Shown in pieces: positions 1,189 through 34,028 of a stretch of 64,000 nucleotides of DNA. A model generated the notes under the pieces. It searched no databases, was not told the origin of the DNA, and saw only the letters and a program-made list of their open reading frames with translations. Each line of letters opens with the position of its first letter. The stretch's first letter is position 1. The position numbers were made by a program, and so were the translations under genes. This DNA is from an uncultured Oscillospiraceae bacterium (GTDB lineage Bacteria; Bacillota; Clostridia; Oscillospirales; Oscillospiraceae), in NCBI GenBank assembly GCA_934590355.1, contig CAKTOX010000001.1, positions 69,249 to 133,248 of the forward strand, given 5' to 3'.

Positions 1189-1276
1189 GCGCGAGTGGTG
1201 GAATTGGCAGACTCGCTAGATTCAGGTTCTAGTGCTCACTCCGGGCGTGCGGGTTCAAGTCCCGCCTCGCGCACCA
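1189..1276 (+). tRNA. tRNA-Leu (anticodon CAG)
   Basis: Acceptor stem GCGCGAG/CTCGCGC, anticodon arm CTAGA-TTCAGGT-TCTAG, long variable arm (class II), T-loop GGTTCAAGTCC, encoded CCA end. Confidence 0.9.
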
Positions 1277-1367: not shown

Positions 1368-1384
1368 TGTCAGTCAAACTGACA
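1368..1384. promoter_or_regulatory. 17-bp perfect palindrome, putative TetR operator (site 1)
   Basis: TGTCAGT-CAA-ACTGACA directly downstream of the -10 element and 25 nt before the TetR start codon. Confidence 0.55.
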
Positions 1385-1408: not shown

Positions 1409-2041
1409 TTGCCGCACGAGGAGCTGAGAGAAAAGAACATCAGGCTCGTAATCGAGAACGCCCTTGATAGTTTTTTGGAAAACGGAATAGAAAAAACCAA
1501 GGTAGCCGACATTGCGCGCCGCTCCGGGCTCACGGAGCGCTCGGTTTTTCGGTATTTTGAGACCAAGGCCGACCTCGTTTTGGCTGCATCGCTGCTGTAT
1601 TGGAACAGGATACTTGCGCTTATCGACCGTATGTCGCATGAAAATTCCGACGGCGGCACGACCGGCCTTGAGGACGCGGCAAACGTGCTCGTGTGCTACT
1701 CGATGCTGTATCACCTCGACCCCAAGGGCATGCGCTTCACGCTCGATGCGGAGCTGACCTTGCAGGCAGCAGGCAGGCTGCATGAGATAAAAAACCAGCC
1801 GCCCGAGCCGTTTGAGACCTCCGGAGGTCCCATGGCGAAGGCTATCCGCAAGGGTCTTGCCGACGGCTCGATAAGCCCCGAGGTGGACGTGAAGGAGATA
1901 TACTACAACTCCTACGACGCAATTCTGGGAATAATGCAGCGCCTTTCCATAGGTGGCAGCCCCAGCGCGAGAGAGCTCGATTACGACAGCAGAATGCTCC
2001 ATCTCAGCGAGATGTTCGTTAAAGCGCTCAGCGGAAAATAA
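1409..2041 (+). CDS. TetR/AcrR-family transcriptional regulator
   Basis: 210 aa; N-terminal HTH signature IEKTKVADIARRSGLTERSVFRYFETKADL; TTG start 8 nt after GGAGG. Confidence 0.85.
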   Translation: MPHEELREKNIRLVIENALDSFLENGIEKTKVADIARRSGLTERSVFRYFETKADLVLAASLLYWNRILALIDRMSHENSDGGTTGLEDAANVLVCYSMLYHLDPKGMRFTLDAELTLQAAGRLHEIKNQPPEPFETSGGPMAKAIRKGLADGSISPEVDVKEIYYNSYDAILGIMQRLSIGGSPSARELDYDSRMLHLSEMFVKALSGK

Positions 2042-2053
2042 CAAGCGAATTTC

Positions 2054-2079
2054 AAATCCCGAGTTATCGGGATTTGTGT
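2054..2079 (+). terminator. terminator hairpin after the TetR gene
   Basis: AAATCCCGA-GTTA-TCGGGATTT stem-loop followed by a short T-containing tail (weak U tract). Confidence 0.5.
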
Positions 2080-2090
2080 ATGCCCGCTTT

Positions 2091-2107
2091 TGTCAGCCTT
2101 GCTGACA
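2091..2107. promoter_or_regulatory. 17-bp palindrome, putative TetR operator (site 2) in front of dehydratase cassette 1
   Basis: TGTCAG-CCTTG-CTGACA; same half-sites and same total length as 1368-1384; about 44 nt upstream of ATG 2151. Confidence 0.5.
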
Positions 2108-2150
2108 TAAATGGGCAAATATAAAAAAACACACAGGAAGAAGGGCCGCA

Positions 2151-3356
2151 ATGAAAGAACTGAAGCATTTGATTTACTTTGAGAGCCTGCTGGAGGACAC
2201 GAACAACGAGCTTGTCCGCAAGGCAGAGTCGGAGGGGGACCTGGCGCTCGGTTACACCTGCTTTCACGCGCCGGAGGTGCTCATGAACTTGGGCAATTGC
2301 TTCTCCGTCCGGCTTCGTGCACCGCACACCAACTCCATGGAGCTGGCAACCTATTACATGGCCAACAACAGCTGCGAGTTCGCCCGTGCGCTTTTGGAGC
2401 GCGCGCTTGAGGGCAACTACGCATTTCTCCACGCCATGATAGGCGTTGACGTCTGCGAGGCGAATAACCGCGCCATCGAGAATATGGAGATCATGCACGC
2501 GCAGGGCGAGGACAAGGACAAATTCTTCTACTGCAATCTGGACATTCCCTATTCCGACGACGAGGACTGCGTCGAGCACATCCGCGAGCAGGTCTCCAGA
2601 AAAATTTTAAAGCCCCTGCGCGAAAACTACGGCATCGACACCTCGGACGACGCCATCCGCGCCGCCGTGAGCGAGCACAACGAGGTCTGCCGCATTTTGA
2701 CCGAGATAGGCGAGCTGCGCAAGCTGGATATCCCGCCCGTCACGGGCTATGAGTACGCCGTTTTGGTTTTGGTCAGCTACACCTGCCCCAAGCGGTTCAT
2801 TCTCCCCTACCTGCGCGAGACGCTTGAGGAGATAAAAAGCCGCAAGACCGACGCCGAGAAGGACTACCGCGTCCGCGTTGTCGTCGTCGGCTCGGAGATC
2901 GACGATCCTCAGCTCATCAAGCTCATCGAGGGCTGCGGCGCACTGGTGGTCGCCGACCGCTACTGCTACGGCTCCTTCCCCGGCAGACAGGAGATAGAGC
3001 TCACCGACACCGAGGACGCACTCACGCAGGTCTGCCGCTGGTATCTGCAAAACACGGAGTGCCCGCGCCAGAGCGCAATGCACCGCGTCAAGTACCGCAA
3101 CGACCACGTCGCGCAGCTTGTTAAGGACTTTAACGCCGACGGCGCTATTTACGAGCAGATGAAGTTCTGCACCTACTGGTCGTATGAGCGCGTCATCGCA
3201 AACCAGGTCATGCCCCGCGACTACGGCATCCACATTCTCTCCATAGACCGCCCCTACATTTCCGGTCAGAGCGGTCAGCTTCGCACGAGAGTGCAGGCCT
3301 TCGTGGAGAGCCTTGAAATGAAAAAGCTCAGGACAGCTCAGAAGGAGGAAAACTGA
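2151..3356 (+). CDS. 2-hydroxyacyl-CoA dehydratase/benzoyl-CoA reductase family protein, HgdB-like small subunit (cassette 1)
   Basis: 401 aa; six Cys conserved with the paralogs at 5278 and 11169 (GYTC, SCEF, VCEA, DRYCYGS, ECPR, KFC); overall HGD-D-family look; GGAAG RBS. Confidence 0.8.
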   Translation: MKELKHLIYFESLLEDTNNELVRKAESEGDLALGYTCFHAPEVLMNLGNCFSVRLRAPHTNSMELATYYMANNSCEFARALLERALEGNYAFLHAMIGVDVCEANNRAIENMEIMHAQGEDKDKFFYCNLDIPYSDDEDCVEHIREQVSRKILKPLRENYGIDTSDDAIRAAVSEHNEVCRILTEIGELRKLDIPPVTGYEYAVLVLVSYTCPKRFILPYLRETLEEIKSRKTDAEKDYRVRVVVVGSEIDDPQLIKLIEGCGALVVADRYCYGSFPGRQEIELTDTEDALTQVCRWYLQNTECPRQSAMHRVKYRNDHVAQLVKDFNADGAIYEQMKFCTYWSYERVIANQVMPRDYGIHILSIDRPYISGQSGQLRTRVQAFVESLEMKKLRTAQKEEN

Positions 3357-3357
3357 C

Positions 3358-4926
3358 ATGGCATACAACCCCAAAACCGGCAAAGGCTTGGGCAGATATT
3401 ACGATGCCGAGCACCGCGCCTTCCGCGCCCGCGAATGGAGAGGCTTTAAGGACACCTTTTACGATTTCTTCCGCTGGCTCTACCTGTACGGCTTCATGGC
3501 CGTAAAGCTGGGCTGCCACCCCATACTCATGGTCAAATCCATGCTGCGCTACCGCTGGATGGTCTCCTACCTCACCGCGGCGCACATGGTCGACCGCCAC
3601 ACCATGGGGCTGCGCGGCAAGGAGCTGCACTATGCCCACAACCAGTTCTTCTCCGTCCTGCACAACTCCGTCATCGGCGTTCGTGACATCATCGTGCGCG
3701 ACGAGAACCTGCGCCCGAACAGCAAGCGTGCGGCAAAGCTGCGCGAGAACACCGTCATGTTCGACGAGATGACCCCGCATCTTATCATGATGGGCTTCCC
3801 CACCGTCAAGTGGATCGACATCGCCATGTTCGCCATCGGTCTGCCCTCCGAGGTCGATCAGAACGCAAGTATGTTCTACATAGACGCAATGGAGCATCTC
3901 GGTCTGCCGGCAGACGTCTGCCCCGAGCCCGCCTCCGAGTGCGGCTGCGCCGTTGTTGACGACTACCCCCGCGTCGGCAAGTGCTACTTCACCGGCACCA
4001 TGCCCTGCGACGGTGCGATCTCCCAGACGAATATCCTCACCCGCCACTTCAAGGATCTGCCCTCGTTCCAGATAACTCCCCCGCAGAGAATAAACGAGCC
4101 CGAGGTGCAGACCTACGCGATCAAGAACCTCAAAAAGGGCATCGAATTTCTCGAGCAGCAGTTCGGCGTAAAGTGGGACTGGGACGCATTTTGGAAAAAT
4201 GCCGAAATGTACAACGAAAGCTCCCGCTGCATGGTCGAAAAGTGGGACGTCAACTGCACCGACTATCCTCAGGTCTGCGGCGCTGCGCTTGCGCTCCAGC
4301 GCGAGTATGAGTTTCAGGCGGCCGCATGCATGGACGAGTTCATGCTCAAGACCGACCGCAAGGTCACCAAGATGATGCTCAAGGGCTACGAAAAGGACAA
4401 GGCGGCCAACGCACCCAAGCCCAAGTACCGCTGCCTCGTTTGGGCATGCCCCGCGCATTATTACACCAACTTCACCTATTGGACTCAGCACTGCTGGGGC
4501 GTCACCTGCGTAAACGACATGGAGGCGATGCTCAGCTACCTGCCCATCAGCACCGACAACAAGGATCAGGCGCTTGCCGACCTCGTTCGCTGCTATGAGA
4601 GAATGATGATGCGCTCCCACACCAACGGAGGTTATGCAAACCTGCTCGACGAGTGCTGGAAGATGTGCGAGAAATTTAACGTCAACATCGTCATCATGTA
4701 CGACCACGTTTCCTGCAAAAACGTCGGCGGTCTGCACGGTCTGTTCGAGGATCAGGCGCGTGAGCGCGGCATCCACCTCATTTGGATACCCCACGATGTT
4801 ATGGACCCGCGTACCGTATCCCGCCGCGAAATGCGCGAGGCGTTCAATCAGTATATGACGACCGTACTGCGCGAGGAGCCCCTCGACCCGACGCTGCTCG
4901 ATTACGAAGACAATCTCAGCTGGTAA
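3358..4926 (+). CDS. 2-hydroxyacyl-CoA dehydratase family protein, HgdA-like large subunit (cassette 1)
   Basis: 522 aa; starts 1 nt after the preceding stop with GGAGG RBS; motifs REWRG, DVCPEP, MPCDG, HCWG, SCK shared with paralogs 6471 and 9976. Confidence 0.8.
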   Translation: MAYNPKTGKGLGRYYDAEHRAFRAREWRGFKDTFYDFFRWLYLYGFMAVKLGCHPILMVKSMLRYRWMVSYLTAAHMVDRHTMGLRGKELHYAHNQFFSVLHNSVIGVRDIIVRDENLRPNSKRAAKLRENTVMFDEMTPHLIMMGFPTVKWIDIAMFAIGLPSEVDQNASMFYIDAMEHLGLPADVCPEPASECGCAVVDDYPRVGKCYFTGTMPCDGAISQTNILTRHFKDLPSFQITPPQRINEPEVQTYAIKNLKKGIEFLEQQFGVKWDWDAFWKNAEMYNESSRCMVEKWDVNCTDYPQVCGAALALQREYEFQAAACMDEFMLKTDRKVTKMMLKGYEKDKAANAPKPKYRCLVWACPAHYYTNFTYWTQHCWGVTCVNDMEAMLSYLPISTDNKDQALADLVRCYERMMMRSHTNGGYANLLDECWKMCEKFNVNIVIMYDHVSCKNVGGLHGLFEDQARERGIHLIWIPHDVMDPRTVSRREMREAFNQYMTTVLREEPLDPTLLDYEDNLSW

Positions 4927-4943
4927 TTAAGGAGGAAATAAAA

Positions 4944-5099
4944 ATGGCTTGGTACTGGATAGTTCTGATAGTTCTCTTTACTCTGTTCTGTCTGCTGTTT
5001 CTGGCATACATGACCAACGCGGACATGAAGCTCATCGAAAAAATATACAACGCCCTTATAAAATACCACGACAGCAAGAGCGTCGAGGAAAAGATCTGA
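4944..5099 (+). CDS. 51-aa single-pass membrane mini-protein (cassette 1)
   Basis: ATG 4944 lies 8 nt after GGAGG (4931-4935) inside ORF-track entry 4782..5099; MAWYWIVLIVLFTLFCLLFLAYMTNADMKLIEKIYNALIKYHDSKSVEEKI; shares a motif with the mini-proteins at 8060 and 8444. Confidence 0.65.
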   Translation: MAWYWIVLIVLFTLFCLLFLAYMTNADMKLIEKIYNALIKYHDSKSVEEKI

Positions 5100-5136
5100 T
5101 CCGATCTTCAAAACAGCATAAAGCGCTATAACGAAA

Positions 5137-5164
5137 AGAGCAGGCATGAGCCTGCTCTTTTTTG
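5137..5164 (+). terminator. Rho-independent terminator ending cassette 1
   Basis: AGAGCAGGC-ATGA-GCCTGCTCT stem-loop followed by TTTTTT. Confidence 0.8.
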
Positions 5165-5195
5165 TCGGTTTTTCGACATAAAGCAAAGTTTTGTG

Positions 5196-5223
5196 TTGCA
5201 ATTCTCGCCGAAAATGTTAAAAT
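5196..5223 (+). promoter_or_regulatory. promoter of cassette 2
   Basis: TTGCAA (5196-5201), 16-nt spacer, TAAAAT (5218-5223). Confidence 0.5.
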
Positions 5224-5277
5224 ATTATCGGTTTGCTTTATGCAGGCCTATCGCTAAGATAAAAACACGGAGGAAAC

Positions 5278-6474
5278 ATGAAAGATTTAAAGCATCTGCT
5301 GTATTTTGAGAATCTTCTTCAAGAGGCTCAAAATGAACTGATCCTGCAGGCGCAGAGCGAGGGGGATATCTGCGTGGCTTATGTCTGCGAAAACACTCCC
5401 GAACCGCTGCTGAATCTGCCGGGAACATTCTCGACCCGCCTGCGTGCGCCGCGCACGGGCTCGATGGAAATGGCGACCTACTACATGACGAGCTTCCTTT
5501 GCGAGTACAGCCGCGCCCTGCTTGAGCGCGCGATCGAGGGCGGCTTCAACTTTGCCGACTGCATCATCACGCCCGACGGCTGCACGATGATGAACAGAGC
5601 CGTTGAGAATATGGAGCTTCTCAACGCCGTCGGCAAGGACAAGGAAAACTTCTTCTATGAGTACATGGAAATACCCATGAAGGCCGACGACAACGGTCTT
5701 AATCTCTACACGCTCCAGTGCAAAAACCACATTCTCACCCCGCTGCACGAGCACTACGGCATCGACGTTTCCGACGAGGCCATCCGCAAGGCAGTCGCGG
5801 AGCACAACCGCGTGTGCGAGCTCATACGCGCCATCGGCGAGTTCAGAAAGGGCGTCGCTCCGCGCATCACGGGCTATGAGTTCCACGTCATCACCCTTGC
5901 GACCTACGCCGCTCCCAAGGCGCTTCTCATCAGTAAGCTCGAGGAGACGCTCGAGGAGCTCAAGACCCGTGAGCCGGACGATACGAAATACCGCGCAAGA
6001 GTCCTCGTCGTGGGCTCGGAGATCGACGACACGGACTTTATTAAGCTCATCGAGAGCACCGGAGCATACGTCTGCGCCGACCGCTTCTGCTACGGCTCCC
6101 TGCCCGGCAGAGATCCCATCGTGCTCACCGATGATGAGGACGCGCTCACGCAGGTCTGCCGCCAGTATATGTACCGCGGTCAGTGCCCGAGATACATGAA
6201 CACCGCGAAAATGAACGGCAGACGCGAATACGTCAACGCCCTTGCCAAGGAATACGACGCCGACGGCATAATCTACGAGCAGATAAAGTTCTGCGATCCC
6301 TGGGCTTACGAGCGCATGATGGGCTCGCACATTCTGCACGATGACTACGGCTATCCCGTGCTCTCGGTCGACCGCCCGTACTGCATTTCGAGCTCCGGTC
6401 AGATGCGCACCCGCGTTCAGGCATTTGTCGAGAGCGTCGAGATCAAGAGGATCCAGGGAGGGGAAAAGAAATGA
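5278..6474 (+). CDS. HgdB-like small subunit (cassette 2)
   Basis: 398 aa; paralog of 2151..3356 along the full length (MKDLKHLLYFENLL..., ...GQMRTRVQAFVESVEIK); same six Cys. Confidence 0.8.
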   Translation: MKDLKHLLYFENLLQEAQNELILQAQSEGDICVAYVCENTPEPLLNLPGTFSTRLRAPRTGSMEMATYYMTSFLCEYSRALLERAIEGGFNFADCIITPDGCTMMNRAVENMELLNAVGKDKENFFYEYMEIPMKADDNGLNLYTLQCKNHILTPLHEHYGIDVSDEAIRKAVAEHNRVCELIRAIGEFRKGVAPRITGYEFHVITLATYAAPKALLISKLEETLEELKTREPDDTKYRARVLVVGSEIDDTDFIKLIESTGAYVCADRFCYGSLPGRDPIVLTDDEDALTQVCRQYMYRGQCPRYMNTAKMNGRREYVNALAKEYDADGIIYEQIKFCDPWAYERMMGSHILHDDYGYPVLSVDRPYCISSSGQMRTRVQAFVESVEIKRIQGGEKK

Positions 6475-8042
6475 GCAACAAGAGAATAGGCTGCGAGAAC
6501 TTCGGCAAGGTATATGTCGAGGGTAAGCGTTACAGAAGCCGCCGTGAGTGGCGCGGCGTCGTTGATACACTTTACGATTACTCCAGATGGCTTCACAACT
6601 GGTTTAACATGGCGAGGATCGTCCTTATAAAGCCCCGCAACGTCAAGGCGATGTTCCGCTACCGCTGGATGGCAAACTACCTCGCCGTTCCCATGATGAT
6701 CGACCGCCACACTCAGGGTCTGCGCGGCGAGCATCTGCGCATCTGCCACGCCGAGCAGGACGTCATCGTTGAGGACGTCGCAAAGCTGCTCGACAAGCTC
6801 TTCAAGGGCGACCGCCGCATCGGAAACGACACCGAGTTTTCCAAGAAGGTCGTGCTCGTTGACGAAAACGAGATGCAGTCCGTAATGATGGGCTTTCCCA
6901 CCGTCGTGCCGCTCAGCCGCGAGATAGCCTCGACCTACATTCCCGTGCTTCTCAACCAGCGCGCCGCCATACACTACATAGACGTTGCTCAGGAATACGG
7001 TCTTGCCGGCGACGTTTGCCCGATGCCGGAGGCTGAGGCGGGCGTTTCCATCGATGACGACGCACCCATCCTCGGCTGCTGCGCCGTGCAGTGCAACACC
7101 ACCTGCGACGGCTCGCTGCTCAGTAACGGCGTCATCTCAAAGCGCATGGAGCTCGAGGACGGCATCCCCGTTTTCCAGCTCGCATCCCCGCTGCGTCACG
7201 TTAACGAGGACGTTCAGGAATACGCCGCGCAGGAAATTCGCAACGCCATTGCCTTCATCGAGGAGCACACGGGCGAAAAGTGGGACTGGACCCACTACTT
7301 CGAGTGCGCAAGACGCGTAAACTACGCAACGAAGTGCCGTCTGGAGTGGCTTGAAATGAACAAGTCCCCCTATCCGCAGGTCTTCGGCTCGAACCTCGCT
7401 CTGTACACCGAGACCAACTACATGGCGATAAGCGGCAGACTGCCCATCTTCGAAAAGACCGACCGCAAGATAACGAAGCTTGCCGAGCGCGCGTACAAGA
7501 AAAAGAAGATGGTCGCAAACGAGTACCGCCACCGCGCAATCGTTTGGGGCGTGCAGTCGCATTATTACATGGATCTGCTCGTTTGGATGCTCAACTGCTG
7601 GGGCATCGTGCCGCTGACGGATATGCTCTCGATGGACAACACCGAGATGATCGCAGAGGTCGACACCCCCGAAAACCGCGAGCAGGCGATATACGACATT
7701 GCAATGCTCACCGAGCGCATGATAATGCGCAACCGCACCCACGGCGGCTATAAGGTGCTGCTTGACGACCTGTGGAAGTTCGTTGAGGAGTTTAACGCCG
7801 ACATGGTCATTCTCTGGGAGCACATGAGCTGCAAGGCTCTCGACGGTATGCACGGAATGTTCGAGGAGCGCGCCCGCGAGCGCGGCATCCACCTTGTGTG
7901 GGTCTCCCACGATCTGTTTGACCCGCGCGTGGTCTCCCGTCAGGGCGTGCGTGATCAGATAAACACCTATATGCGCACGGTCATGGGCGAGGAGCCCGTT
8001 GACCCGAGCCTTGAAATTCTCCCCGACGAGGAATCGTGGTAA
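6471..8042 (+). CDS. HgdA-like large subunit (cassette 2)
   Basis: 523 aa; ATGA start/stop overlap with the previous gene; GGAGG RBS; paralog of 3358..4926. Confidence 0.8.
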   Translation: MSNKRIGCENFGKVYVEGKRYRSRREWRGVVDTLYDYSRWLHNWFNMARIVLIKPRNVKAMFRYRWMANYLAVPMMIDRHTQGLRGEHLRICHAEQDVIVEDVAKLLDKLFKGDRRIGNDTEFSKKVVLVDENEMQSVMMGFPTVVPLSREIASTYIPVLLNQRAAIHYIDVAQEYGLAGDVCPMPEAEAGVSIDDDAPILGCCAVQCNTTCDGSLLSNGVISKRMELEDGIPVFQLASPLRHVNEDVQEYAAQEIRNAIAFIEEHTGEKWDWTHYFECARRVNYATKCRLEWLEMNKSPYPQVFGSNLALYTETNYMAISGRLPIFEKTDRKITKLAERAYKKKKMVANEYRHRAIVWGVQSHYYMDLLVWMLNCWGIVPLTDMLSMDNTEMIAEVDTPENREQAIYDIAMLTERMIMRNRTHGGYKVLLDDLWKFVEEFNADMVILWEHMSCKALDGMHGMFEERARERGIHLVWVSHDLFDPRVVSRQGVRDQINTYMRTVMGEEPVDPSLEILPDEESW

Positions 8043-8059
8043 TTGGAAAGGAGATAAAA

Positions 8060-8227
8060 ATGTCCAAGCTTTGCCCTGTTTTCAAAAAGCTCTCGCTGGC
8101 GGGACTGTCGTTTTTCGCCGTCACCTTCGCCGTGTATTATTTTAATCTCGACATGAAGATGACCTCGGCAATGGAGCCGGTGCTCGAATTTTTCTACGAC
8201 AGAGTAGACCGCGACCAGCACCTATGA
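8060..8227 (+). CDS. 55-aa single-pass membrane mini-protein (cassette 2)
   Basis: ATG 8060 lies 6 nt after AGGAG, inside ORF 8036..8227; MSKLCPVFKKLSLAGLSFFAVTFAVYYFNLDMKMTSAMEPVLEFFYDRVDRDQHL. Confidence 0.65.
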   Translation: MSKLCPVFKKLSLAGLSFFAVTFAVYYFNLDMKMTSAMEPVLEFFYDRVDRDQHL

Positions 8228-8241
8228 TCTATTAAATATGC

Positions 8242-8282
8242 AAAAACCTGCCGTGAGCTTTAACGTTCACGGCAGGTTTTTC
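8242..8282. terminator. bidirectional terminator between convergent cassettes 2 and 3
   Basis: 11-bp stem ACCTGCCGTGA/TCACGGCAGGT flanked by AAAAA on the left and TTTTT on the right. Confidence 0.8.
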
Positions 8283-8291
8283 TATCATATT

Positions 8292-8444
8292 TTACAGTCT
8301 GACGTCGCGCTTGCGGCTGTCGTAGACCTTGTTGAGGATAGGTCTTACGCCGTAGTACAGCAGCTTGTTGTCAAGGTTAAACCAATAGATGAGCATACTC
8401 AGAGGAACGATGCTCATTGCACCTATTAGGAGCTTCTTTTTCAT
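8292..8444 (-). CDS. 50-aa single-pass membrane mini-protein (cassette 3); not in the ORF track
   Basis: Own translation of the minus strand: MKKKLLIGAMSIVPLSMLIYWFNLDNKLLYYGVRPILNKVYDSRKRDVRL; ATG 5 nt after the stop of the large subunit; YWFNLDNK motif matches YYFNLDMK of cassette 2. Confidence 0.6.
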   Translation of the reverse strand: MKKKLLIGAMSIVPLSMLIYWFNLDNKLLYYGVRPILNKVYDSRKRDVRL

Positions 8445-8449
8445 TGCCG

Positions 8450-9976
8450 TCACCATCCTTCGTAATCGTCAAAGTCAACGAGGCTCGCGTCAAGCGGCTC
8501 CTCCTGCATGACCGCGGTCATGTAGTCGGAAAACTGTCTGCGCATTTCGTTTCTGCTTATAGTGCGGTGGTCAAACATATCGTTCTGCACCCAGACAAGG
8601 TGCTTGTTCTTCTCCTTGGCCTGATCGTTCACAACGCCGGAAAGGCCCATCGCGCCCTTGCAGGTTATGTCATCATACACGAGCACGATGTCGCAGTTAA
8701 ATCTCTCCGCCTCGTCCCAAACCTCGAGCAGATGCTGGTATCCGCCCGTGAGGTGACGGCGCATGACTCCGCGCTCGTAGTTGTGCGCAACTCCCAAAAG
8801 CGCATCGTCAAGGTTATCCTCGGAGATGATGACGTTGCCGGAGAACATATCCATTCCCGCAACGACGAGGACGCCCCAGCAGTTATATGCCCAGGTGTTA
8901 AAGTCGATGTAGTAGCAGCCCGGACCGCCCCAGGTTATCATGCGGTGGCGAGTTTTGTCGAAGCTGACGACCTTGTCGCGGTATGCCTTTTCCGCAATGC
9001 GCAGCGCCTTTTTCGCGGCCTTGTCGATGAAGGGCATCGTGCCGCCGGAGAAGGTGAAGTAAAACGCATGGAAAAGCGGGCAGATGACGTGTCCGTATGC
9101 CGAATACGGCGTTTTGGCGTACTCCCATGCCTCGAACTCGTTGCGCACCTCTTTGTTGTGCTGCTTGATGACGCTGAAAAACGCGCGCTCGTCGAATTTC
9201 TCGCCCGTCGTGTCCTCGATGAATTTTATCGTATCCTTCATCTGCGCAAGTGCGTATTTATCGGTAGACTCGTCCTCCCAGCGCATCGGGATACCCGCAA
9301 CGGTCGTGGGTATCTTAACGCGGCGTTCTATGAGCTGGCTGTTCATGGTCGAGGAGTCGCAGGGCATATTATTCGTGATAAGGCAGGCGCCTATCTCGGG
9401 ATAATCGTCGTTTATCGCAACGCCCGCGGCATTTGCGCTCAGGCGGCAGGAGTCGGCGGGAAGCCCGACGTTTTCCATGATGTCCATGTAAAACGGCGCG
9501 AGGTTCTGATCCATATAAGTGCCCAGAAGTCCCTGAAGCACCTCAAGCGGCAGTGTCTTGAGATTGGGAAAGCCCGCTGCTATCTCGGGGCACATGGTCT
9601 GCTCGAGCATGACGAATTTATCGGCGTACTTCGTGTCACCGAAGCGGCGGTCACCCTTCATGCTGTCGGCTATCATGTTCGTCGTGCCGGTCATGATAGC
9701 GTGCATCTGAGTGTGGGAAACGCGCAGCGCGGGGCCGCGCATTCCGGCGGTGCACTTATCTATCATGTGCAGGGCACCGATATAGCCGCCGAACCAGCGG
9801 TACTCGAAAAGTCCCTTGACTATGCGAACGGGCGATTTGCCCGCGAATTTCACGAGAATGCCGAGATTTATGACCCACTGGGTGTAATCATAGAAGGTGT
9901 CCTTCAGGCCGCGCCACTCGCGGTGCTTTGCGATGCCGCTGCCCTTGTAAAAGCGTTTTGCCTCGTTTGCCATCAC
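8450..9976 (-). CDS. HgdA-like large subunit (cassette 3)
   Basis: 508 aa; paralog of 3358..4926 and 6471..8042; ORF-track start is GTG 9976, and ATG at 9973 (TGATG overlap with the upstream stop) is an equally good start. Confidence 0.8.
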   Translation of the reverse strand: MMANEAKRFYKGSGIAKHREWRGLKDTFYDYTQWVINLGILVKFAGKSPVRIVKGLFEYRWFGGYIGALHMIDKCTAGMRGPALRVSHTQMHAIMTGTTNMIADSMKGDRRFGDTKYADKFVMLEQTMCPEIAAGFPNLKTLPLEVLQGLLGTYMDQNLAPFYMDIMENVGLPADSCRLSANAAGVAINDDYPEIGACLITNNMPCDSSTMNSQLIERRVKIPTTVAGIPMRWEDESTDKYALAQMKDTIKFIEDTTGEKFDERAFFSVIKQHNKEVRNEFEAWEYAKTPYSAYGHVICPLFHAFYFTFSGGTMPFIDKAAKKALRIAEKAYRDKVVSFDKTRHRMITWGGPGCYYIDFNTWAYNCWGVLVVAGMDMFSGNVIISEDNLDDALLGVAHNYERGVMRRHLTGGYQHLLEVWDEAERFNCDIVLVYDDITCKGAMGLSGVVNDQAKEKNKHLVWVQNDMFDHRTISRNEMRRQFSDYMTAVMQEEPLDASLVDFDDYEGW

Positions 9977-11169
9977 ATTTTACCTCCCTGAAGCTTTTTG
10001 ATCTCGATGCTCTCGACAAATGCCTGAAATCTCGTGCGAAGCTGTCCGGCGGAGGCCATGGTATATTCCTTCTCGACGCCTATGCAGGGTATGCCTTCGA
10101 CCTCGTTCATGTCGTGCACGCCCATGACGCGCTCGTAGCTCCAGAATTCGCAGAACTTCATTTGCAGATACAAAATGCCGTCGGCATTGTAATCGCGCAC
10201 GAGATCCTTGAGGCACTGTCTGCGCTGGAGCTGCTTTTCCTTGTTCATAAAGCGGGGGCACTGGCTCGTTGTGAGATAATGCCGCGCAACTGCCGTCAGA
10301 GCACTCTCGCCCTCGCGCAGCTCGATCTGCTCTCTGCCGGGAATGGAGCCGTAGCAGTAGCGGTCGGCGCAAACGTACGCTCCGCAGTCCTCAAGAAGCT
10401 TCGTGAACGCAGGATCGTCCACCTCGGAGCCGGTCACGACAAGGCGTGCGCGGTAGCCGGGCTTCGGGTCCGTCTTGCGCTTTTTGATCTCCTTGAGCGT
10501 TTCCTCGAGCTTTTCCTTTATGAGATACTGCGGGCAGCACTCGGAAACAAGCTGGATAACGTGGAATTCATAGCTCGTGACGGGCGGGTTGGGGAGCTTT
10601 CTCATGTCGCCTATTTCGCTCACTATGCGGCAGATCTCATTATGCTCTGCTATCGCGGCGCGGATAGCCCCGTCGGAAACGTCGACGCCGTAGACTCTCT
10701 CCAGCGGCTCGAGTATGTACTTTTTAAGCTGTCCCTCATAGTGCTCAAACGCCGCCTTCGTGGTCACGAACGGCACGTCCATCATGCTCAGGAAAAAGTC
10801 GGGATTCTGCTCCTTAACGAGCCCCATGATGTCAAAGTACTCGTGCGCACGGTGCATCATCTGGCAGGTCTCGGACGAGAACATCGCAGACAGGAAGTTG
10901 TAACCCCCCTCCATGCTGCGCTCAAGCACGCTGCGGGTAAACGGGCAGGTCTTGTTTGTCATGTAATAAGTGCCGATGTCGGTATTGCTCGTGCCGGGTG
11001 CGCGCAGTCTCACCGAGAAGCAGCCGCCGAGATTGAGCAGCACCTCAGGAACGAAATAGCAGGTGTAGCCCAGCGCCCTTTTCCCCTCAGACGCCGCCTG
11101 CTTGACAAGCTCGTTATTCGCATCCTGAAGCAGGTCTTCAAAATAAATCAGATGCTTTAAGTCTTTCAT
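9973..11169 (-). CDS. HgdB-like small subunit (cassette 3)
   Basis: 398 aa; MKDLKHLIYFEDLLQDANNELV... closest to the cassette-1 copy; GGAGGAGG RBS. Confidence 0.8.
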   Translation of the reverse strand: MKDLKHLIYFEDLLQDANNELVKQAASEGKRALGYTCYFVPEVLLNLGGCFSVRLRAPGTSNTDIGTYYMTNKTCPFTRSVLERSMEGGYNFLSAMFSSETCQMMHRAHEYFDIMGLVKEQNPDFFLSMMDVPFVTTKAAFEHYEGQLKKYILEPLERVYGVDVSDGAIRAAIAEHNEICRIVSEIGDMRKLPNPPVTSYEFHVIQLVSECCPQYLIKEKLEETLKEIKKRKTDPKPGYRARLVVTGSEVDDPAFTKLLEDCGAYVCADRYCYGSIPGREQIELREGESALTAVARHYLTTSQCPRFMNKEKQLQRRQCLKDLVRDYNADGILYLQMKFCEFWSYERVMGVHDMNEVEGIPCIGVEKEYTMASAGQLRTRFQAFVESIEIKKLQGGKM

Positions 11170-11246: not shown

Positions 11247-11275
11247 ATATTATCACATCGGTATTTTTGTGTCAA
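11247..11275 (-). promoter_or_regulatory. promoter of cassette 3
   Basis: On the minus strand TTGACA (11275-11270), 17-nt spacer, TAATAT (11252-11247). Confidence 0.55.
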
Positions 11276-11284
11276 TTATTATTC

Positions 11285-11313
11285 TTGACATTATGATCGA
11301 ATTCGGTCATAAT
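11285..11313 (+). promoter_or_regulatory. GntR-gene promoter with embedded 24-bp near-palindrome (putative GntR operator)
   Basis: TTGACA (11285-11290), 17 nt, CATAAT (11308-11313); ATTATGATCGAATTCGGTCATAAT (11290-11313) is self-complementary at 22/24 positions. Confidence 0.55.
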
Positions 11314-11367: not shown

Positions 11368-12081
11368 ATGGAATTTGAAAAAATAAGCATCCCCTCTCCG
11401 AAGGAATGCTTTTTCGAGAACGTAAAATCGAAGATACTGACGGGCGAGCTCGCCCCCGGGCAGAAGCTGCCGTCCGAACGTGAGCTGGCCGAGCGCACGG
11501 GGATAAACCAATCGGCTATTCACCTCGCGATAAAAGACCTTGAGCGCACGGGCTTTCTGGACATCGTCCCCCGCCACGGAACGTATATCGCCGATTACGT
11601 TTCCAGCGGCAACTACGAGACGCTGCACGAAATCCTCAAATCCGGCAGCCGGCACATGACGGAGCAGCGCGTGATCTCGCTCGTGGAGACGCGAAACGCC
11701 ATAGAGGGCGGGGCGCTCATCCGCCTTGCAAGCGAGCACACGCCCGAGGACCTTAAGGCGCTTGAGGAGCACATCGCGCTTTTCCGAAGCGCGCGCGGCA
11801 AGGGCTTGGGCGCGGACGAGCTCGGAAAAATGACCAAGGACTTTCACTATCTCATCTGCAAGCTCAGCCGAAACGAGGTGTTTATACTGCTTATGAACTC
11901 CTTTGCCGAAATTTCGCAGGGGCTTTGGCGGCACTGCGCGGGGCATTGGGGGCTTGAGGGGCTCATTGAGCAAAGCGAGCATATCCTCTTGCTCATCAAG
12001 CAGGGGCGCGGGCTCGACGCGCAGGTCTATATAACCGAAAAATTCAACGAATACGTCCGCGACTGCGGCATAAAAATATGA
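11368..12081 (+). CDS. GntR-family transcriptional regulator (FadR/FCD-type C-terminal domain)
   Basis: 237 aa; winged-helix signature LPSERELAERTGINQSAIHLAIKDLERTGFLDIVPRHGTYI followed by an all-helical C-terminal half. Confidence 0.85.
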   Translation: MEFEKISIPSPKECFFENVKSKILTGELAPGQKLPSERELAERTGINQSAIHLAIKDLERTGFLDIVPRHGTYIADYVSSGNYETLHEILKSGSRHMTEQRVISLVETRNAIEGGALIRLASEHTPEDLKALEEHIALFRSARGKGLGADELGKMTKDFHYLICKLSRNEVFILLMNSFAEISQGLWRHCAGHWGLEGLIEQSEHILLLIKQGRGLDAQVYITEKFNEYVRDCGIKI

Positions 12082-12109
12082 AAACCGGTGTCAATGACAC
12101 CGGTTTTTT
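12081..12109. terminator. bidirectional terminator
   Basis: ACCGGTGTC-AAT-GACACCGGT flanked by AAAA and TTTTTT, between convergent genes. Confidence 0.8.
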
Positions 12110-12114
12110 CATCA

Positions 12115-12651
12115 TCAGCGCTTGTCGATGCACTCGATTATTTCACCCACAAAGACGAGATGGGGCTGCCAGCCGCCCTTAAAGTCGGGATAGACCCGCG
12201 GCATGGAGGCATAATACTCCTGAATTTCCGGCGCAAGATCCTCGCGCGAAAACTGATGCTGATACAGCTTCTTGCAAACGAAGGTGAGGCTCGCCTCCTC
12301 GTAGCTTATGCCCTTGCCGACCGTGACGGGAGTTAGCCCCGCGGCAGCGGCCTTGTCCTCAAATCTGCCCGTGTGAGTGCCGATATATGCAACGGCCTTG
12401 CGATACTGCTCAGGGTAAAAGCTCACCGTGAAGCACTCGCTTTTCGTGAGAAATTCGCTGGTGTATCTTGCCGGGTGCACGTAAACGGTCACCGTTGAGC
12501 AGCGCTTACCGTCGCGGCTCCATATAGTGCCGAGGCTGCCCCAGCTTACCGTGCAGCTGTTAAAATCGTCGGGCTCGCCCGCGGTCACGATCGCCCACTG
12601 CTTGTCAAACATCTCAAAAACCTTGTAGTCTTTTTCCTTGTAGCTATCCAT
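12115..12651 (-). CDS. flavin reductase-like (FMN-binding split-barrel) family protein
   Basis: WAIVTAGEPDDFNSCTVSWGSLGTIW...VYVHPARYTSEFL pattern typical of the Flavin_Reduct family; ATG 12651 lies 7 nt after AGGTGGA (the ORF track starts 12 nt earlier at a GTG inside the RBS). Confidence 0.65.
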   Translation of the reverse strand: MDSYKEKDYKVFEMFDKQWAIVTAGEPDDFNSCTVSWGSLGTIWSRDGKRCSTVTVYVHPARYTSEFLTKSECFTVSFYPEQYRKAVAYIGTHTGRFEDKAAAAGLTPVTVGKGISYEEASLTFVCKKLYQHQFSREDLAPEIQEYYASMPRVYPDFKGGWQPHLVFVGEIIECIDKR

Positions 12652-12694
12652 AATACTATCCACCTGAAATTTTAATTTGCCGTGCGATCTTTAT

Positions 12695-13990
12695 TTAGCC
12701 CGGCGCCCGAGCCTTCGGCTTCAGAAGAAGCGTGGACGCCATAAGCACGACGAACGGATTAACGACGTATCTGTAACGCGGCTGCACCTCAATGAGAAGG
12801 TACACAACAAAAAACACGCACACTATCGTTGTCATTAAACGCAGCGCAAAGCAGAATTCACGCTTGCGGCATACGAGCATTTTGACAACACCGGCCGCGG
12901 AAAGAAGGTACAGGCACAGCCTGTATGCACGCTCATAGAGATAAAAGCGCTTTGAAAACGTTTCAACATCAATTTCCATAACCTCGCCGGAGCTGCCCGT
13001 AAACACAAAATACAGCGGCTCGGCCGAATTCCAAAATGCCTCGATCTTGTTCAAGACGAGCGCGGGAATGCTCATGCCCTCGGCATAAGACTGCTTTATG
13101 GCGTTTATCGTTTCCTGCCAGCGCTGAGCGTTGTCGGTTATTGATAAAATGAAGCCGTTTCGACCTGTGTATGTTCCGCCTATCATGAAATCCAGTCCGA
13201 CGACAAACTTCCACTGAGGAGCGTTATTGCCTATTCCGTAGGGAGCGATGCCGCACAAGGCAAATATCTTACCGACCGCATACTGTAAAGTAAAATACAC
13301 AAGCGTGAGCAGCGCAACGGGCAAAATCGCTTTAAACTCCCTGCGGCAGCAGCGATAGATCATCACGCAGAAAATGATTGAAAGAATAATAACGACAGCC
13401 TCGGCGCGCATGAGATTTCCGACGGCGAGAAAAGCGCCTGCGGCAGCGGCCGAAACATAGCGGCTCTTTTTCCCTGCGTCCAAATATCTCAGATACACGT
13501 ATAGGCCCAACAGCATGAAAAACAGCGATATGTGCTGATTGGTGAGAACCGGCGTAAGTATAAACGCTGCCGGGCACAGAGCATATATAAATCCCGTGAG
13601 CACCGCCTTGTCCTGCCCGAGATACAAAGAGGAGATCATGTAAACGAGCCATATGCAGCCGGCGGCAAAGAAGATGTTCATTATCTGCAGCGCCCGCAGC
13701 GAATTGCATACAGACAGCACGAGCGCCTCATACATCACAAACGGGATCTGATACGCCCAGTTTCGGTAATACTGCGTCTCCAGCCATGAAAAATCACCGT
13801 TCAGAGCCGAGAGCGCACTGCTGTACATAAGTCCGAAGTCGCTGACGGGCTGTGAATCAACAGACACCACGGCGAGCACCTGGGACAGCACGGCAAAAAC
13901 GAGCAGCAGCGCAGGAGCCATAATTGCGCTGCGCTTGCCGGCAAATTTTGCCGCGGCGAAAATCGCGGCGAGCGCCGCAATGAGCAGCAA
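12695..13990 (-). CDS. polytopic membrane protein, ArnT/PMT_2 (GT39/GT83)-like glycosyltransferase
   Basis: 431 aa with more than 10 hydrophobic helices and overall similarity to dolichyl-phosphate-mannose-type glycosyltransferases; start (TTG 13990) is uncertain. Confidence 0.4.
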   Translation of the reverse strand: MLLIAALAAIFAAAKFAGKRSAIMAPALLLVFAVLSQVLAVVSVDSQPVSDFGLMYSSALSALNGDFSWLETQYYRNWAYQIPFVMYEALVLSVCNSLRALQIMNIFFAAGCIWLVYMISSLYLGQDKAVLTGFIYALCPAAFILTPVLTNQHISLFFMLLGLYVYLRYLDAGKKSRYVSAAAAGAFLAVGNLMRAEAVVIILSIIFCVMIYRCCRREFKAILPVALLTLVYFTLQYAVGKIFALCGIAPYGIGNNAPQWKFVVGLDFMIGGTYTGRNGFILSITDNAQRWQETINAIKQSYAEGMSIPALVLNKIEAFWNSAEPLYFVFTGSSGEVMEIDVETFSKRFYLYERAYRLCLYLLSAAGVVKMLVCRKREFCFALRLMTTIVCVFFVVYLLIEVQPRYRYVVNPFVVLMASTLLLKPKARAPG

Positions 13991-14171
13991 GGCAAACGGC
14001 GCGGCGTGCAGCAGAGCACGCTTTTCCGGTGTCGTCCGGAGTATGAGCGCAAAGGCCGCAAGCGCGAATAAAAGCTATATTATCCAGACAAAGTCCGAGA
14101 ATTTGAAGAAAAACGATGGCTTTTCATTTGAAGTTAGGTTCAAATTATCATTCATAAATCACAATAAAGTT

Positions 14172-14207
14172 ATATTGCCTCATGAAAAAGATCAGAGGCA
14201 ATATTCT
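14172..14207 (-). terminator. possible terminator after ybaB
   Basis: 9-bp stem TATTGCCTC/GAGGCAATA with a 13-nt loop, followed on the minus strand by a T-rich stretch. Confidence 0.35.
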
Positions 14208-14223
14208 TGTCGTAATATTTATA

Positions 14224-14550
14224 TCAGAACGGGAAGCCCATGGGGGTGAGCTTGCTCATTGCCTGATTGGTCGCATCCTCGCTGCGGGCAATGGCTTCGT
14301 TGACCGCGGCAACGATAAGATCCTGAAGCATCTCAACATCGTCGGGATCGACCGCAGAGGGGTCTATCTCTATGCTCTTGAGTGCGCGTGTGCCGATCAT
14401 GGTGGCCTTGACTGCACCGCCGCCGACGGTGGACACGAACTCCTTGCTCTCAAGCTCCTGCTGCATCTTCATGAACTCTTCCTGCATCTTCTGAGCCTGC
14501 TTCATCATATTTCCGCCGGGCATACCGCCGCGAAATCCGCCTTTTGCCAT
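14224..14550 (-). CDS. ybaB: YbaB/EbfC-family nucleoid-associated protein
   Basis: 108 aa from ATG 14550 (AGGAGG RBS): MAKGGFRGGMPGGNMMKQAQKMQEEFMKMQQELE...; conserved position downstream of dnaX. Confidence 0.9.
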   Translation of the reverse strand: MAKGGFRGGMPGGNMMKQAQKMQEEFMKMQQELESKEFVSTVGGGAVKATMIGTRALKSIEIDPSAVDPDDVEMLQDLIVAAVNEAIARSEDATNQAMSKLTPMGFPF

Positions 14551-14569
14551 AGTATTTTCCTCCTTAATA

Positions 14570-16718: not shown

Positions 16719-16794
16719 GGGCCCGTAGCGCAGCTGGGAGCGCGTTCGGTTCGCATCCGAGAGGTCGAGGGTTCGAATCCCTTCGGGTCCACCA
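16719..16794 (+). tRNA. tRNA-Ala (anticodon CGC)
   Basis: 76 nt; acceptor GGGCCCG/CGGGTCC with the G3:U70 alanine identity pair; anticodon loop TTCGCAT; T-loop GGTTCGAATCC; encoded CCA. Confidence 0.9.
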
Positions 16795-18004: not shown

Positions 18005-18745
18005 TCAATGTGAGTCGGAGAAGCCGCCGTCGGCGCAGAGCACCTGACCGGTTATGAACGACGCCTTATCCGAGGCGAGAAATTCCACCGCAGCGGCAAT
18101 GTCCTCGGGTCTGCCGAGCCTGCCGAGCGGGGTCGCCTCGACGAGCATATCCATCGTTTCGCTGCCGAGCGACTGCACCATGTCGGTGTTTATAACTCCG
18201 GGCGCAACGCAGTTAACGCGGATATGCGACGGTGCAAGCTCCTGCGCGAGAGAGCGCGTGAGCCCGACTATCGCGTGCTTTGTCGCGGAATACGCCACCT
18301 CGCACGACGCGCCGTGCTCGCCCCATATCGACGATATGTTCACTATGCAGCCGGAGTGCTCATGCAGCATATCCGGCAGCACCTCCTGTATCGTATTGAA
18401 CGCGCCGCCTATGTTCACCGCCAAAACGCGCTGCCAATACTCGCTGCTTATGTCCTGAAACAGTCCCTGCTTTGCGATGCCCGCGTTATTGACAAGAAGC
18501 GTTATCTGCCCGAGACGCGAGCGCACCTCACACACCATTTCGTGCACGGCCTCGCGGTCGGCAACGTCGGCTCTGTACGACATCGCCTCGAAGCCGCGTG
18601 AAGTAAGCTCCTGCTCGAGCTGCCGCGCCATATCCTCGCGCTCTATATAATTTATGCACACCGCATAGCCCGCCTCGGCAAGCGCTGCGGCGCAGGCTCT
18701 TCCGATGCCGCGTGAGGAGCCTGTTATAAGTGCGACTTTTTTCAT
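18005..18745 (-). CDS. SDR-family oxidoreductase (FabG-like)
   Basis: MKKVALITGSSRGIGRA (TGxxxGIG), NNAG, YSATK catalytic motif; ATG 18745 lies 7 nt after AAGGTGA. Confidence 0.85.
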   Translation of the reverse strand: MKKVALITGSSRGIGRACAAALAEAGYAVCINYIEREDMARQLEQELTSRGFEAMSYRADVADREAVHEMVCEVRSRLGQITLLVNNAGIAKQGLFQDISSEYWQRVLAVNIGGAFNTIQEVLPDMLHEHSGCIVNISSIWGEHGASCEVAYSATKHAIVGLTRSLAQELAPSHIRVNCVAPGVINTDMVQSLGSETMDMLVEATPLGRLGRPEDIAAAVEFLASDKASFITGQVLCADGGFSDSH

Positions 18746-18750
18746 TATTA

Positions 18751-34016: not shown

Positions 34017-34028
34017 AACACTCACCTC

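Follow-up and report, generated by a model that had tools for sequence, protein, structure and literature searches.

The window (the whole 64-kb stretch of contig CAKTOX010000001.1, from an uncultured Oscillospiraceae bacterium, that was analyzed in the present study) carries a block of three cassettes, each composed of genes for a B subunit (~400 amino acids [aa]), an A subunit (~510–520 aa), and a mini-protein (~50 aa). It is fairly probable that these are three independently regulated catalytic-core cassettes, each encoding a heterodimer like that of BzdNO, the catalytic module of class I benzoyl-CoA reductase (BCR), together with the mini-protein, that helper proteins are supplied in trans, and that the three act on different substrates. 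This reading draws on gene content, family membership, ligand conservation, fold, purifying selection, and comparative architecture. From these, we infer the cluster types, the need for an activase, the membrane location, and the diversity of substrates. Comparison loci from species genomes and metagenomes are denoted by L-numbers (L002, L011, and so on).

Composition of the cassettes

An earlier note on this DNA had placed nine open reading frames (ORFs) in the block. All nine, including the three mini-ORFs, were present at these coordinates, and independent gene calling on identical metagenome contigs recovered them too; only the starts of two ORFs differed, with the gene callers choosing ATG 9973 for A3 (507 aa, ATGA overlap with B3) and 8456 for M3 (54 aa). 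As the note had expected, the six large ORFs all matched PF06050 (119.7–294 bits; gathering cut-off, 28.4), the B subunits with ~290 bits and the A subunits with ~120–125 bits. Membership of the HGD-D superfamily and the assignment of the ~400-aa proteins as beta-like and of the ~510–520-aa proteins as alpha-like were supported. Purifying selection acts on 9 of the 9 cassette genes (dN/dS 0.03–0.25), with values of 0.06–0.11 for B1, 0.18 for B2 (against L015), 0.03–0.04 for A1, 0.08 for A3, and 0.04–0.06 for M1.

The best PDB match of the ~400-aa subunit, measured on the paralog B3, was BzdN (8S02_B, E = 3e-26), followed by HadC and the double-cubane cluster protein (DCCP). BzdN Cys36, Cys73, Cys100, Cys263, Cys293, and Cys327 are the [8Fe-9S] ligands of BzdNO (PMC11971306). 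In a HMMER alignment of B3 with BzdN, C37, C75, C102, C272, C304, and C340 (B1 numbering) fall on these six ligands, and BzdN Arg53 has an Arg counterpart in B3. Exactly six Cys were invariant in B (61 of 61 non-identical sequences from the fetched loci), whereas HadC lacked counterparts of C37 and C272 in the alignment. The earlier description of B as an HgdB-like [4Fe-4S] protein was, therefore, too coarse: B has a six-Cys BzdN/DCCP signature, at least two Cys of which are missing from HadC, and is predicted to carry an [8Fe-9S] double cubane like BzdN and DCCP.

The A subunit is very divergent, and its best PDB sequence match was DCCP with E = 1e-3. An AlphaFold2 model of A1 built with 79 sequences had a pLDDT of 92 and a pTM of 0.90, and its best Foldseek matches were BzdO (8S02_A, the top match), HadB (3O3M_A), DCCP, and MbdO. 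The ligands of the catalytic [4Fe-4S]-OH2 cluster of BzdO are Cys95, Cys128, and Cys380 (PMC11971306); C188, C217, and C453 of A map onto these residues in a profile-to-PDB alignment. Four Cys motifs had been regarded as invariant in A. Exactly three Cys are invariant family-wide (78 of 78 sequences), and the Cys of CWG occurs in 68 of the 78. As in BzdO, the three Cys of A are predicted to hold a [4Fe-4S] cluster that leaves an iron site open. Other features of A are an N-terminal extension of ~130 aa, which is helical and contains an invariant REW.G..DT, and an invariant Trp at the C terminus.

The motifs quoted previously were confirmed, namely, the MK[ED]LKHL[IL]YFE start and the six Cys in B as well as REWRG..DT.YD and the C-terminal Trp in A. 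GQ[LM]RTR[VF]QAFVES is also present in B, but is located 10–25 residues before the end rather than at the C terminus. REW.G..DT, the three Cys, and the C-terminal Trp in A, the six Cys in B, and an N.D.K motif in the mini-protein are features of the clade and were found in cassettes 1–3.

The mini-protein is a genuine, conserved component of the family; in ~80 loci, a homolog of M1–M3 is encoded 3' of either A or the activase. In an alignment of 78 unique minis, a hydrophobic helix at the N terminus precedes the motif Y-x-[TF]-N-x-D-x-K-[LM]..K.Y..L....D. Each A/B type has its own C-terminal tail (...YD.IDRD.HL in the A2 type and ...NLDNKL.YY.VRP in the A3 type), which speaks for a direct partnership with A and B. 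The Kyte-Doolittle maximum over 19 residues was 2.74 for M1, clearly at the level of a transmembrane helix, and was borderline for M2 (1.58) and M3 (1.68), while hydropathy revealed no comparable segment in A or B. The membrane tethering proposed in the earlier note is, thus, plausible from the hydropathy of M1, with M2 and M3 being borderline. The mini-protein is probably a third, type-specific subunit that anchors or stabilizes the complex at the membrane.

As judged from alignments and the A1 model, the B–A pair is built like BzdNO and not like HgdAB. BzdNO and MbdON (class I BCR; PDB 8S02, 9G87; Nat Commun 2025, PMC11971306) are likewise heterodimers of two PF06050 subunits, B aligns on the six [8Fe-9S] Cys ligands and A on the three Cys of the open-site [4Fe-4S] cluster, and BzdNO provides the best sequence match of B and the best structural match of A. 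However, identity is only 12–25%, and scores with the NCBIfam models were far under the cut-offs (B with the BzdN model TIGR03190, 82–92 bits vs 453.8; A with the BzdO model TIGR03191, at most 17.8 bits vs 448.6). The ~130-aa extension and invariant C-terminal Trp of A and the third mini-subunit also distinguish the clade from BzdNO. Furthermore, the window has no BcrAD_BadFG gene, benzoate-CoA ligase, or ring-cleavage or benzoyl-CoA pathway genes. The hosts of BzdNO are denitrifying Proteobacteria, whereas those of the clade are gut Clostridia.

Operons of the relatives and proposed supply of helper proteins

A survey of species genomes with the A subunit yielded at least 566 loci of the family. 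The sampled loci were those nearest to A1 or to the activase, and the frequencies given are approximate. The canonical operon has the order P-B-A-activase-mini-X (~65 species genomes and ~60 metagenome loci). Among the best 80 of the at least 566 loci by closeness to A1, L024–L090 lie outside the window lineage and all have the full order or a contig-end part of it. The mini gene is located 5' of the activase gene (B-A-mini-activase) in L168 and L172, and no mini gene was found at the tblastn threshold used in the full operons L120, L156, L158, L161, L173, and L177.

P (253 aa) is a MinD/ParA-type ATPase. Its best PDB match was CooC1 (3KJE, 2e-14), and its CYC motif aligns with the metal-binding C-x-C of CooC; P, which occurs in the operons of relatives and not in the window, resembles the CooC/AcsF Ni-insertion ATPases in this respect. 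The activase (263 aa, BcrAD_BadFG) matched TIGR00241 with 213 bits, above the cut-off; it is a single protein of the homodimer type, in contrast to the BzdP/BzdQ pair of BzdNO. X (~235 aa) exceeded the Pfam CdhC threshold in two of three cases, aligns to residues 340–506 of the Moorella acetyl-CoA synthase (ACS), and has a C-terminal C-x2-C-x5-C. Unlike ACS, it lacks the Ni-binding Cys-Gly-Cys region, and no carbon monoxide dehydrogenase/ACS genes are nearby. An example of a P and X pair is found at L005 7999–8760 and 12531–13268, and equivalents are present in ~60 loci; the pair may function in metal or cluster insertion.

Other genes recur as partners. A 760-aa OYE/BaiCD-like flavoenzyme is encoded in approximately half of the A1-type full operons, a gene of the acetyl-CoA hydrolase/transferase family (AcetylCoA_hyd_C) replaces it in 6 of ~61 full operons, and a MATE transporter is encoded in a few. 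IsrA-like Fe-S/FAD oxidoreductases (~890–940 aa; Fer4_20 and Pyr_redox_2), which resemble the proposed isoprene reductase IsrA and are often found with HypA, recur beside A2-type cassettes (L097 5078–8295, L098 13306–16137, and L100 5520–8702), with a single A3-type case (L094 570–3622). The isoprene-reductase operon was considered and is not the same system, although IsrA-like genes adjoin A2-type cassettes; the SAO selenoprotein locus was similarly rejected.

The cassettes of the window lack the in-operon CooC-like ATPase, activase, and CdhC-domain protein of the clade and represent a bare form. No activase was detected in the 64-kb window by a motif regular expression or by tblastn with the activase of relatives, and tblastn with the proteins of relatives did not detect a P, X, OYE, IsrA-like, or HypA gene there. 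The unusual layout that the earlier note had described, with neither an activase nor a CoA-transferase, was confirmed for the window. However, its suggestion of a branch without an activase applies to the window lineage only, because most relatives elsewhere have an in-operon activase, CooC-like ATPase, and ACS-like protein. Similarly, the triplet layout recurs in bare form at L002, L011–L023, L091–L096, and L100, whereas most relatives have the full operon.

In a neighbor-joining distance tree of the A subunits with midpoint rooting, the bare A1 clade is nested in full-operon clades, the A2 clade is mixed, and the A3 clade is all bare. Since the activase gene lies between A and mini in full operons, this clade placement indicates that it was lost at least twice with B-A-mini being kept, which in turn suggests that B-A-mini is a functional catalytic unit. 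Between operon types with A subunits of only ~40% identity, the activases are still 76–82% identical, and B, with 50–60% identity across types, is much better conserved than A. A well-conserved activase and B and a variable A fit an enzyme in which the side for docking and electron entry is common and the side facing the substrate varies. One full operon lies beside a bare B-A-mini cassette in several metagenome loci (convergent in L154, L156, L158, and L166; tandem in L147 and L175; divergent in L171), which supports the sharing of helpers in trans. No locus without B-A was found among the 80 best loci in a metagenome scan with the activase.

We propose the following mechanism. By homology with BzdNOPQ, 2-hydroxyacyl-CoA dehydratase (HAD), and DCCP systems, the activase would hydrolyze ATP and inject a low-potential electron into the double cubane of B. 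B would store this electron and hand it on to the open-site [4Fe-4S] cluster of A, at which the bound substrate would undergo radical reduction or dehydration, and the mini peptide would serve as a membrane anchor or stabilizer of the B–A complex. The activase, CooC-like ATPase, and ACS-like protein are most likely provided in trans, either by a full operon or by another activase elsewhere in the genome. The supply of an activase in trans appears to be reasonable because activases are conserved, full operons and bare cassettes share loci, and the nine genes are under strong purifying selection.

Alternatively, bare cassettes may be activase-independent and receive electrons directly from ferredoxin, flavodoxin, or a flavin reductase. 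The repeated loss of the activase gene with retention of B-A-mini is consistent with this possibility, bare cassettes near mobile-element genes must function in new hosts, and flavodoxin-like, Fe-S aldo-keto reductase, or flavin-reductase genes adjoin cassette-3-type modules. However, we consider it unlikely: characterized members (HAD, class I BCR, and DCCP) require ATP-driven electron injection according to the literature, the bare cassettes that adjoin an activase-containing full operon fit sharing, and the activase is exceptionally conserved.

Regulation of the cassettes

The earlier note had assigned each cassette its own promoter and terminator. Promoter-like and terminator-like sites were found for each; however, cassettes 2 and 3 have a common bidirectional hairpin. 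Separate regulation of the cassettes is supported by a TetR-family regulator with conserved palindromes for cassette 1 and by a GntR/FCD-family regulator divergent from cassette 3. The palindrome TGTCAG-N5-CTGACA has two matches in the window vs 0.29 expected. Both positions are kept in L002 and L011–L022, and the same palindrome is present upstream of P in the full operons L033, L051, L057, L058, L065, L072, and L075, which have a TetR homolog and belong to other species. The TetR gene is conserved beside B1-A1-M1 in 13 loci, with homologs upstream of full operons in other species. The palindrome pair is likely a TetR operator common to bare cassettes and full operons across species. Strong promoter-like sites lie between B3 and the GntR gene, the GntR-B3-A3-M3 arrangement is also found in L095 and L096, and the promoter region of cassette 2 is 92% conserved in a B2 remnant of L011 described below. 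A shared operator for cassettes 1 and 2 was also considered and rejected: TGTCGGTTTTTCGACA upstream of cassette 2 deviates from the consensus TGTCAG-N5-CTGACA, and the remnant in L011 has not kept it.

Relationship to characterized enzymes and possible substrates

The NCBIfam models for BzdN/O, BcrB/C, HadB/C, and DCCP were all missed widely, which indicates a separate branch. BzdNO has the closest known architecture, HAD and DCCP systems have the closest activator type, and equivalog-level tests failed for all.

A1, A2, and A3 most likely have three different small molecules as substrates because the A subunits are highly diverged and are under different ligand-responsive repressors (TetR with a conserved operator; GntR/FCD). 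The earlier proposal of substrate-specialized isoenzymes is, thus, supported: A is far more divergent than B, and modules have either a TetR or a GntR regulator. Since OYE/BaiCD-like or IsrA-like C=C reductases recur as partners, the product or substrate of B–A appears to have a reducible double bond. The reaction could yield a dearomatized ring, or an enoate via dehydration.

The three cassettes may instead dehydrate three different 2-hydroxyacyl-CoAs. HadBC, HgdAB, FldBC, and LcdAB (activators HadI, HgdC, and FldI) belong to the same superfamily (PF06050) and have the same alpha/beta architecture as the cassettes. A resembles HadB in its fold and three-Cys cluster, HadB was among the top structural matches of A1, the activase of relatives matches the TIGR00241 model (acyl-CoA dehydratase activase), and a CoA-transferase-family gene lies 3' of the operon in six related loci. 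However, the six-Cys signature of B is that of BzdN and DCCP and not of the single cluster of HadC, and the NCBIfam HadB and HadC models gave 17–81 bits vs cut-offs of 700–750. Neither the window nor the majority of related loci has a CoA-transferase, 2-hydroxyacid dehydrogenase, acyl-CoA dehydrogenase, or Etf gene, and the window also lacks the activase of these systems. The usual partners in the clade are OYE-type or IsrA-like reductases, the CooC-like ATPase, and the ACS-like protein, none of which are known from HAD operons, and the clade adds the mini component. These results render the dehydration of 2-hydroxyacyl-CoAs improbable.

We also considered a DCCP-like activity, namely, the reduction of small molecules that are either inorganic or unsaturated (similar to acetylene, azide, or hydrazine), in which catalysis would occur at the double cubane of B and A would be structural. 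DCCP/DCCP-R (PDB 6ENO, 7YYL; NF040772) shares the six-Cys [8Fe-9S] signature, the relatives similarly have an ATP-dependent reductase partner, DCCP was among the top matches of both subunits, and the best NCBIfam match of B was the double-cubane model NF040772. However, its score of 129–149 bits (26–34 bits for A) was far under the cut-off of 350. DCCP is a homodimer encoded by one gene, whereas B of the clade is always paired with a distinct A, the fast-evolving and presumably substrate-binding partner, which lacks the distal sub-cluster ligands and keeps the three-Cys open-site cluster of BzdO and HadB. The double cubane of BzdNO is, moreover, an electron store and not the active site (PMC11971306). 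We regard DCCP-like catalysis as quite improbable.

Several points weigh against three BzdNO-like catalytic cores with helpers in trans. The cluster types of B and A are predictions from Cys conservation and homology, and membrane insertion is uncertain for M2 and M3 because of their hydropathy. The supply of an activase in trans is presumed from its absence in the 64-kb window, which is only part of the genome, and if P and X are essential, bare cassettes need even more trans factors. Furthermore, substrates are not known for any of the relatives. Since a CoA-transferase gene is located beside only 6 of ~61 full operons, the substrate may be either a CoA ester or a free compound.

Origin and exchange of the cassettes

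B is 50–53% identical between cassettes (53.0% for cassettes 1 and 2, 53.3% for 1 and 3, and 50.4% for 2 and 3), A is 35–39% identical, with the highest value for cassettes 1 and 2 (39.0%), and the minis are 24–37% identical. Contrary to the earlier suggestion, cassettes 1 and 3 are not the closest pair. DNA repeats between cassettes are at most 74% identical and at most 211 nucleotides (nt) long. As the earlier note had argued, the copies are old and not an assembly artifact because DNA similarity between cassettes does not exceed ~74% over ~200 nt.

The bare TetR-B1-A1-M1 module is confined to the window lineage (Candidatus Limivicinus, CAG:555, CAG:24053_14, and related metagenome-assembled genomes), and A1 has 59–72% identity to the A subunits that full operons encode. 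Relatives of A2 with 74–93% identity number in the hundreds. A relative with 75% identity belongs to a full operon followed by a 943-aa IsrA-like Fe-S/FAD oxidoreductase (L098/L099), whereas one with 82% identity (L100) belongs to a bare B-A-mini cassette that is preceded by an IsrA-like gene and HypA, has a divergent TetR gene, and adjoins Mob_Pre and TnpV; a Mogibacterium relative (L097) is similar to L100. A3-type relatives are 52–85% identical and all bare. Tandem pairs are frequent among them, a TetR or GntR regulator and a YdhR-like gene accompany them, and an A3-type cassette lies beside conjugation genes in one case.

The cassette content also varies between near-identical strains. L011 and L013 have an A1 that is 99% identical to that of the window, and have cassette 1 only. 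L011 11994–12403 corresponds to window 5136–5547 (92% identical); what is left there is the cassette-2 promoter region and ~90 initial codons of B2, which a stop codon and a frameshift interrupt. This decayed remnant is direct evidence of cassette loss. In L015 and L017, the partner of cassette 1 is another A2-type cassette, with an identity of only 65%.

The earlier note had interpreted the block as an old triplication, and the same gene order and tight coupling in three adjacent cassettes appear to favor the divergence in place of one ancestral cassette. However, this is very improbable: relatives elsewhere are 72–93% identical (72% between A1 and full-operon A of other families, 75–83% between A2 and A2-type subunits elsewhere) vs 35–53% within the block (A1–A2, 39%), the tree places the three in separate deep clades, strains with a 99%-identical A1 hold one cassette or a decayed B2 remnant, and L015 and L017 hold another A2-type cassette. 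As these comparisons indicate, the block is an accretion of accessory modules from three old subfamilies and not a local triplication, because each cassette is closer to relatives in other genomes and the content differs between strains.

Bare cassettes of all three types adjoin conjugation or mobilization genes (L002 58–3433, L091 1–6942, and L100 1–1242). The mobile genes near bare cassettes encode TraG/VirD4, TrbL, DUF3801, ArdC, Maff2, a group II intron reverse transcriptase, Mob_Pre, and TnpV. In L002, module 1 lies beside conjugative-transfer genes, and the A1 protein is identical to that of the window. No match to A1 was found by tblastn in PLSDB (plasmids). Module 1 is located 100–600 bp downstream of a different tRNA in four genomes, namely, Leu in the window, Pro in L011 (7887–7962), Gln in L013 (7585–7658), and Met in L015 (7384–7460), and DNA homology begins within the last ~25 nt of the tRNA in L011 and L012. 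No integrase or att repeat was seen, and no direct repeat of the tRNA-Leu 3' end flanks the block in the window. In a comparison of window 1409–5099 with L013, dS was mosaic (B1/A1, 0.18–0.25; M1, 0.63; TetR, 1.0), which suggests the recent recombination or transfer of B1-A1 between strains.

Features of the window and neighboring genes

The features of the block are summarized in Table 1.

Table 1. Features in and around the cassette block of the window
Feature	Position	Strand	Basis and remarks
tRNA-Leu(CAG)	1189..1276	+	ARAGORN; directly upstream of module 1, possible insertion hot spot
Palindrome TGTCAG-N5-CTGACA (17 bp)	1368..1384		Pattern search; upstream of TetR gene, candidate TetR operator (autoregulation)
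TetR-family regulator, module 1	1409..2041	+	PF00440; dN/dS 0.07
Second TGTCAG-N5-CTGACA palindrome	2091..2107		~45 nt upstream of B1; candidate cassette-1 operator
Cassette 1 (B1-A1-M1)	2151-5099	+	ORF list
B1, BzdN/DCCP-like	2151..3356	+	PF06050, 290 bits; six invariant Cys (C37/C75/C102/C272/C304/C340); predicted [8Fe-9S]
A1, BzdO/HadB-like	3358..4926	+	PF06050; Cys C188/C217/C453; ~130-aa helical N-terminal extension; C-terminal Trp
M1 (51 aa)	4944..5099	+	Hydrophobic helix, then Y.TN.D.KL..K.Y..L....D
Intrinsic terminator, cassette 1	5133..5162	+	Fold; 13-bp stem and T-run
Promoter-like site, cassette 2	5196..5223	+	TTGCAA-16-TAAAAT with TG; consensus scan alone
Cassette 2 (B2-A2-M2)	5278-8227	+	ORF list
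B2, BzdN/DCCP-like	5278..6474	+	PF06050; invariant Cys
A2, BzdO/HadB-like, A2-type clade	6471..8042	+	PF06050; relatives at 74–93% identity
M2 (55 aa)	8060..8227	+	A2-type tail ...FNLDMK...YD..DRDQHL
Bidirectional intrinsic terminator, convergent cassettes 2 and 3	8242..8281		Inverted repeat; -30 kcal/mol; flanking A-tract and T-tract
Cassette 3 (B3-A3-M3)	11169-8292	-	ORF list
M3 (50–54 aa)	8292..8456	-	Start 8444 or 8456; L095 ortholog 53 aa
A3, BzdO/HadB-like, A3-type clade	8450..9976	-	PF06050; sampled clade members all bare cassettes
B3, BzdN/DCCP-like	9973..11169	-	PF06050; six Cys aligned to BzdN 8S02_B
Divergent promoter-like sites, B3/GntR gap	11247..11313		TTGACA-17-TAATAT (-); TTGACA-17-CATAAT (+)
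GntR/FCD-family regulator, divergent from cassette 3	11368..12081	+	PF00392 and PF07729; dN/dS 0.11

A Flavin_Reduct-domain gene (12115–12663, minus strand) adjoins the GntR gene of the window and may encode an electron-donor or pathway partner. At L095 11873–13465, 3' of the cassette-3 ortholog, an Fe-S-domain aldo/keto reductase and a flavodoxin-like gene are possible partners of the same kind. A YdhR-like (PF08803) small protein is encoded beside A3-type bare cassettes in four loci (L091–L093 8282–8770 [L093 1015–1503] and L094 11743–12102). L015 has two membrane transporter genes between cassettes 1 and 2 (11874–14765; SstT-like and Na+/neurotransmitter-symporter-like, as judged by eye), and a gene resembling FMN-dependent alpha-hydroxyacid dehydrogenases is convergent to cassette 2 in L015 (18092–19237) and L017 (18163–19275).

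The annotated part of the window at 16961–39610 contains unrelated housekeeping genes only. A tRNA-Ala lies just before this part (16719–16794). The genes include a short-chain dehydrogenase/reductase (18005–18754), two ABC exporters (18751–22283), an acyltransferase, M23 and M20 peptidases, an H+-pyrophosphatase (23545–25548, plus strand; a longer minus-strand ORF at the same place is a shadow ORF), a LexA-like repressor (29521–30282), a P-type ATPase (30368–32299), and an MBOAT and DHHW pair (32919–35429).

Significance

The superfamily is known, whereas this set of subunits, these helpers, and a modular organization in bare cassettes are not. The literature searched (on gut HAD enzymes, double-cubane proteins, CooC/ACS associations, and steroid 21-dehydroxylation) contained no description of the clade, of the mini-subunit, or of CooC-like and ACS-like helpers with a BCR or HAD enzyme. 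Among double-cubane enzymes, BzdNO is the first whose function has been defined, whereas DCCP-like proteins have no known physiological role (PMC11971306). The clade is widespread in gut and rumen Clostridia, with at least 566 species-genome loci and with single 90%-identity clusters that have thousands of metagenome members.

We tentatively speculate, as a possibility that is rather unlikely in its full extent, on a modular radical-reductase system in which one conserved activation and maturation set (activase, CooC-like ATPase, and ACS-like metalloprotein) serves swappable, substrate-specific, membrane-anchored BzdNO-like cassettes that reduce or dehydroxylate non-CoA dietary or host compounds. 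Gut Clostridia would gain, lose, and exchange these cassettes, partly via mobile elements, under small-molecule-responsive repressors, and Birch-type or ketyl-type reductions or dehydroxylations would feed OYE-type or IsrA-like ene-reductases. If true, such a system would be an unrecognized gut route of reductive xenobiotic or phytochemical metabolism.

The three paralogs in one organism permit a direct comparison, the shared-activase model is testable, and the ligands of TetR and GntR could reveal the substrates. In the window, the enzyme is pared down to catalytic cores that are exchangeable and under separate regulation. Should their substrates prove to be molecules from the diet or the host, these cores would represent a new enzyme class in gut microbial reductive metabolism.

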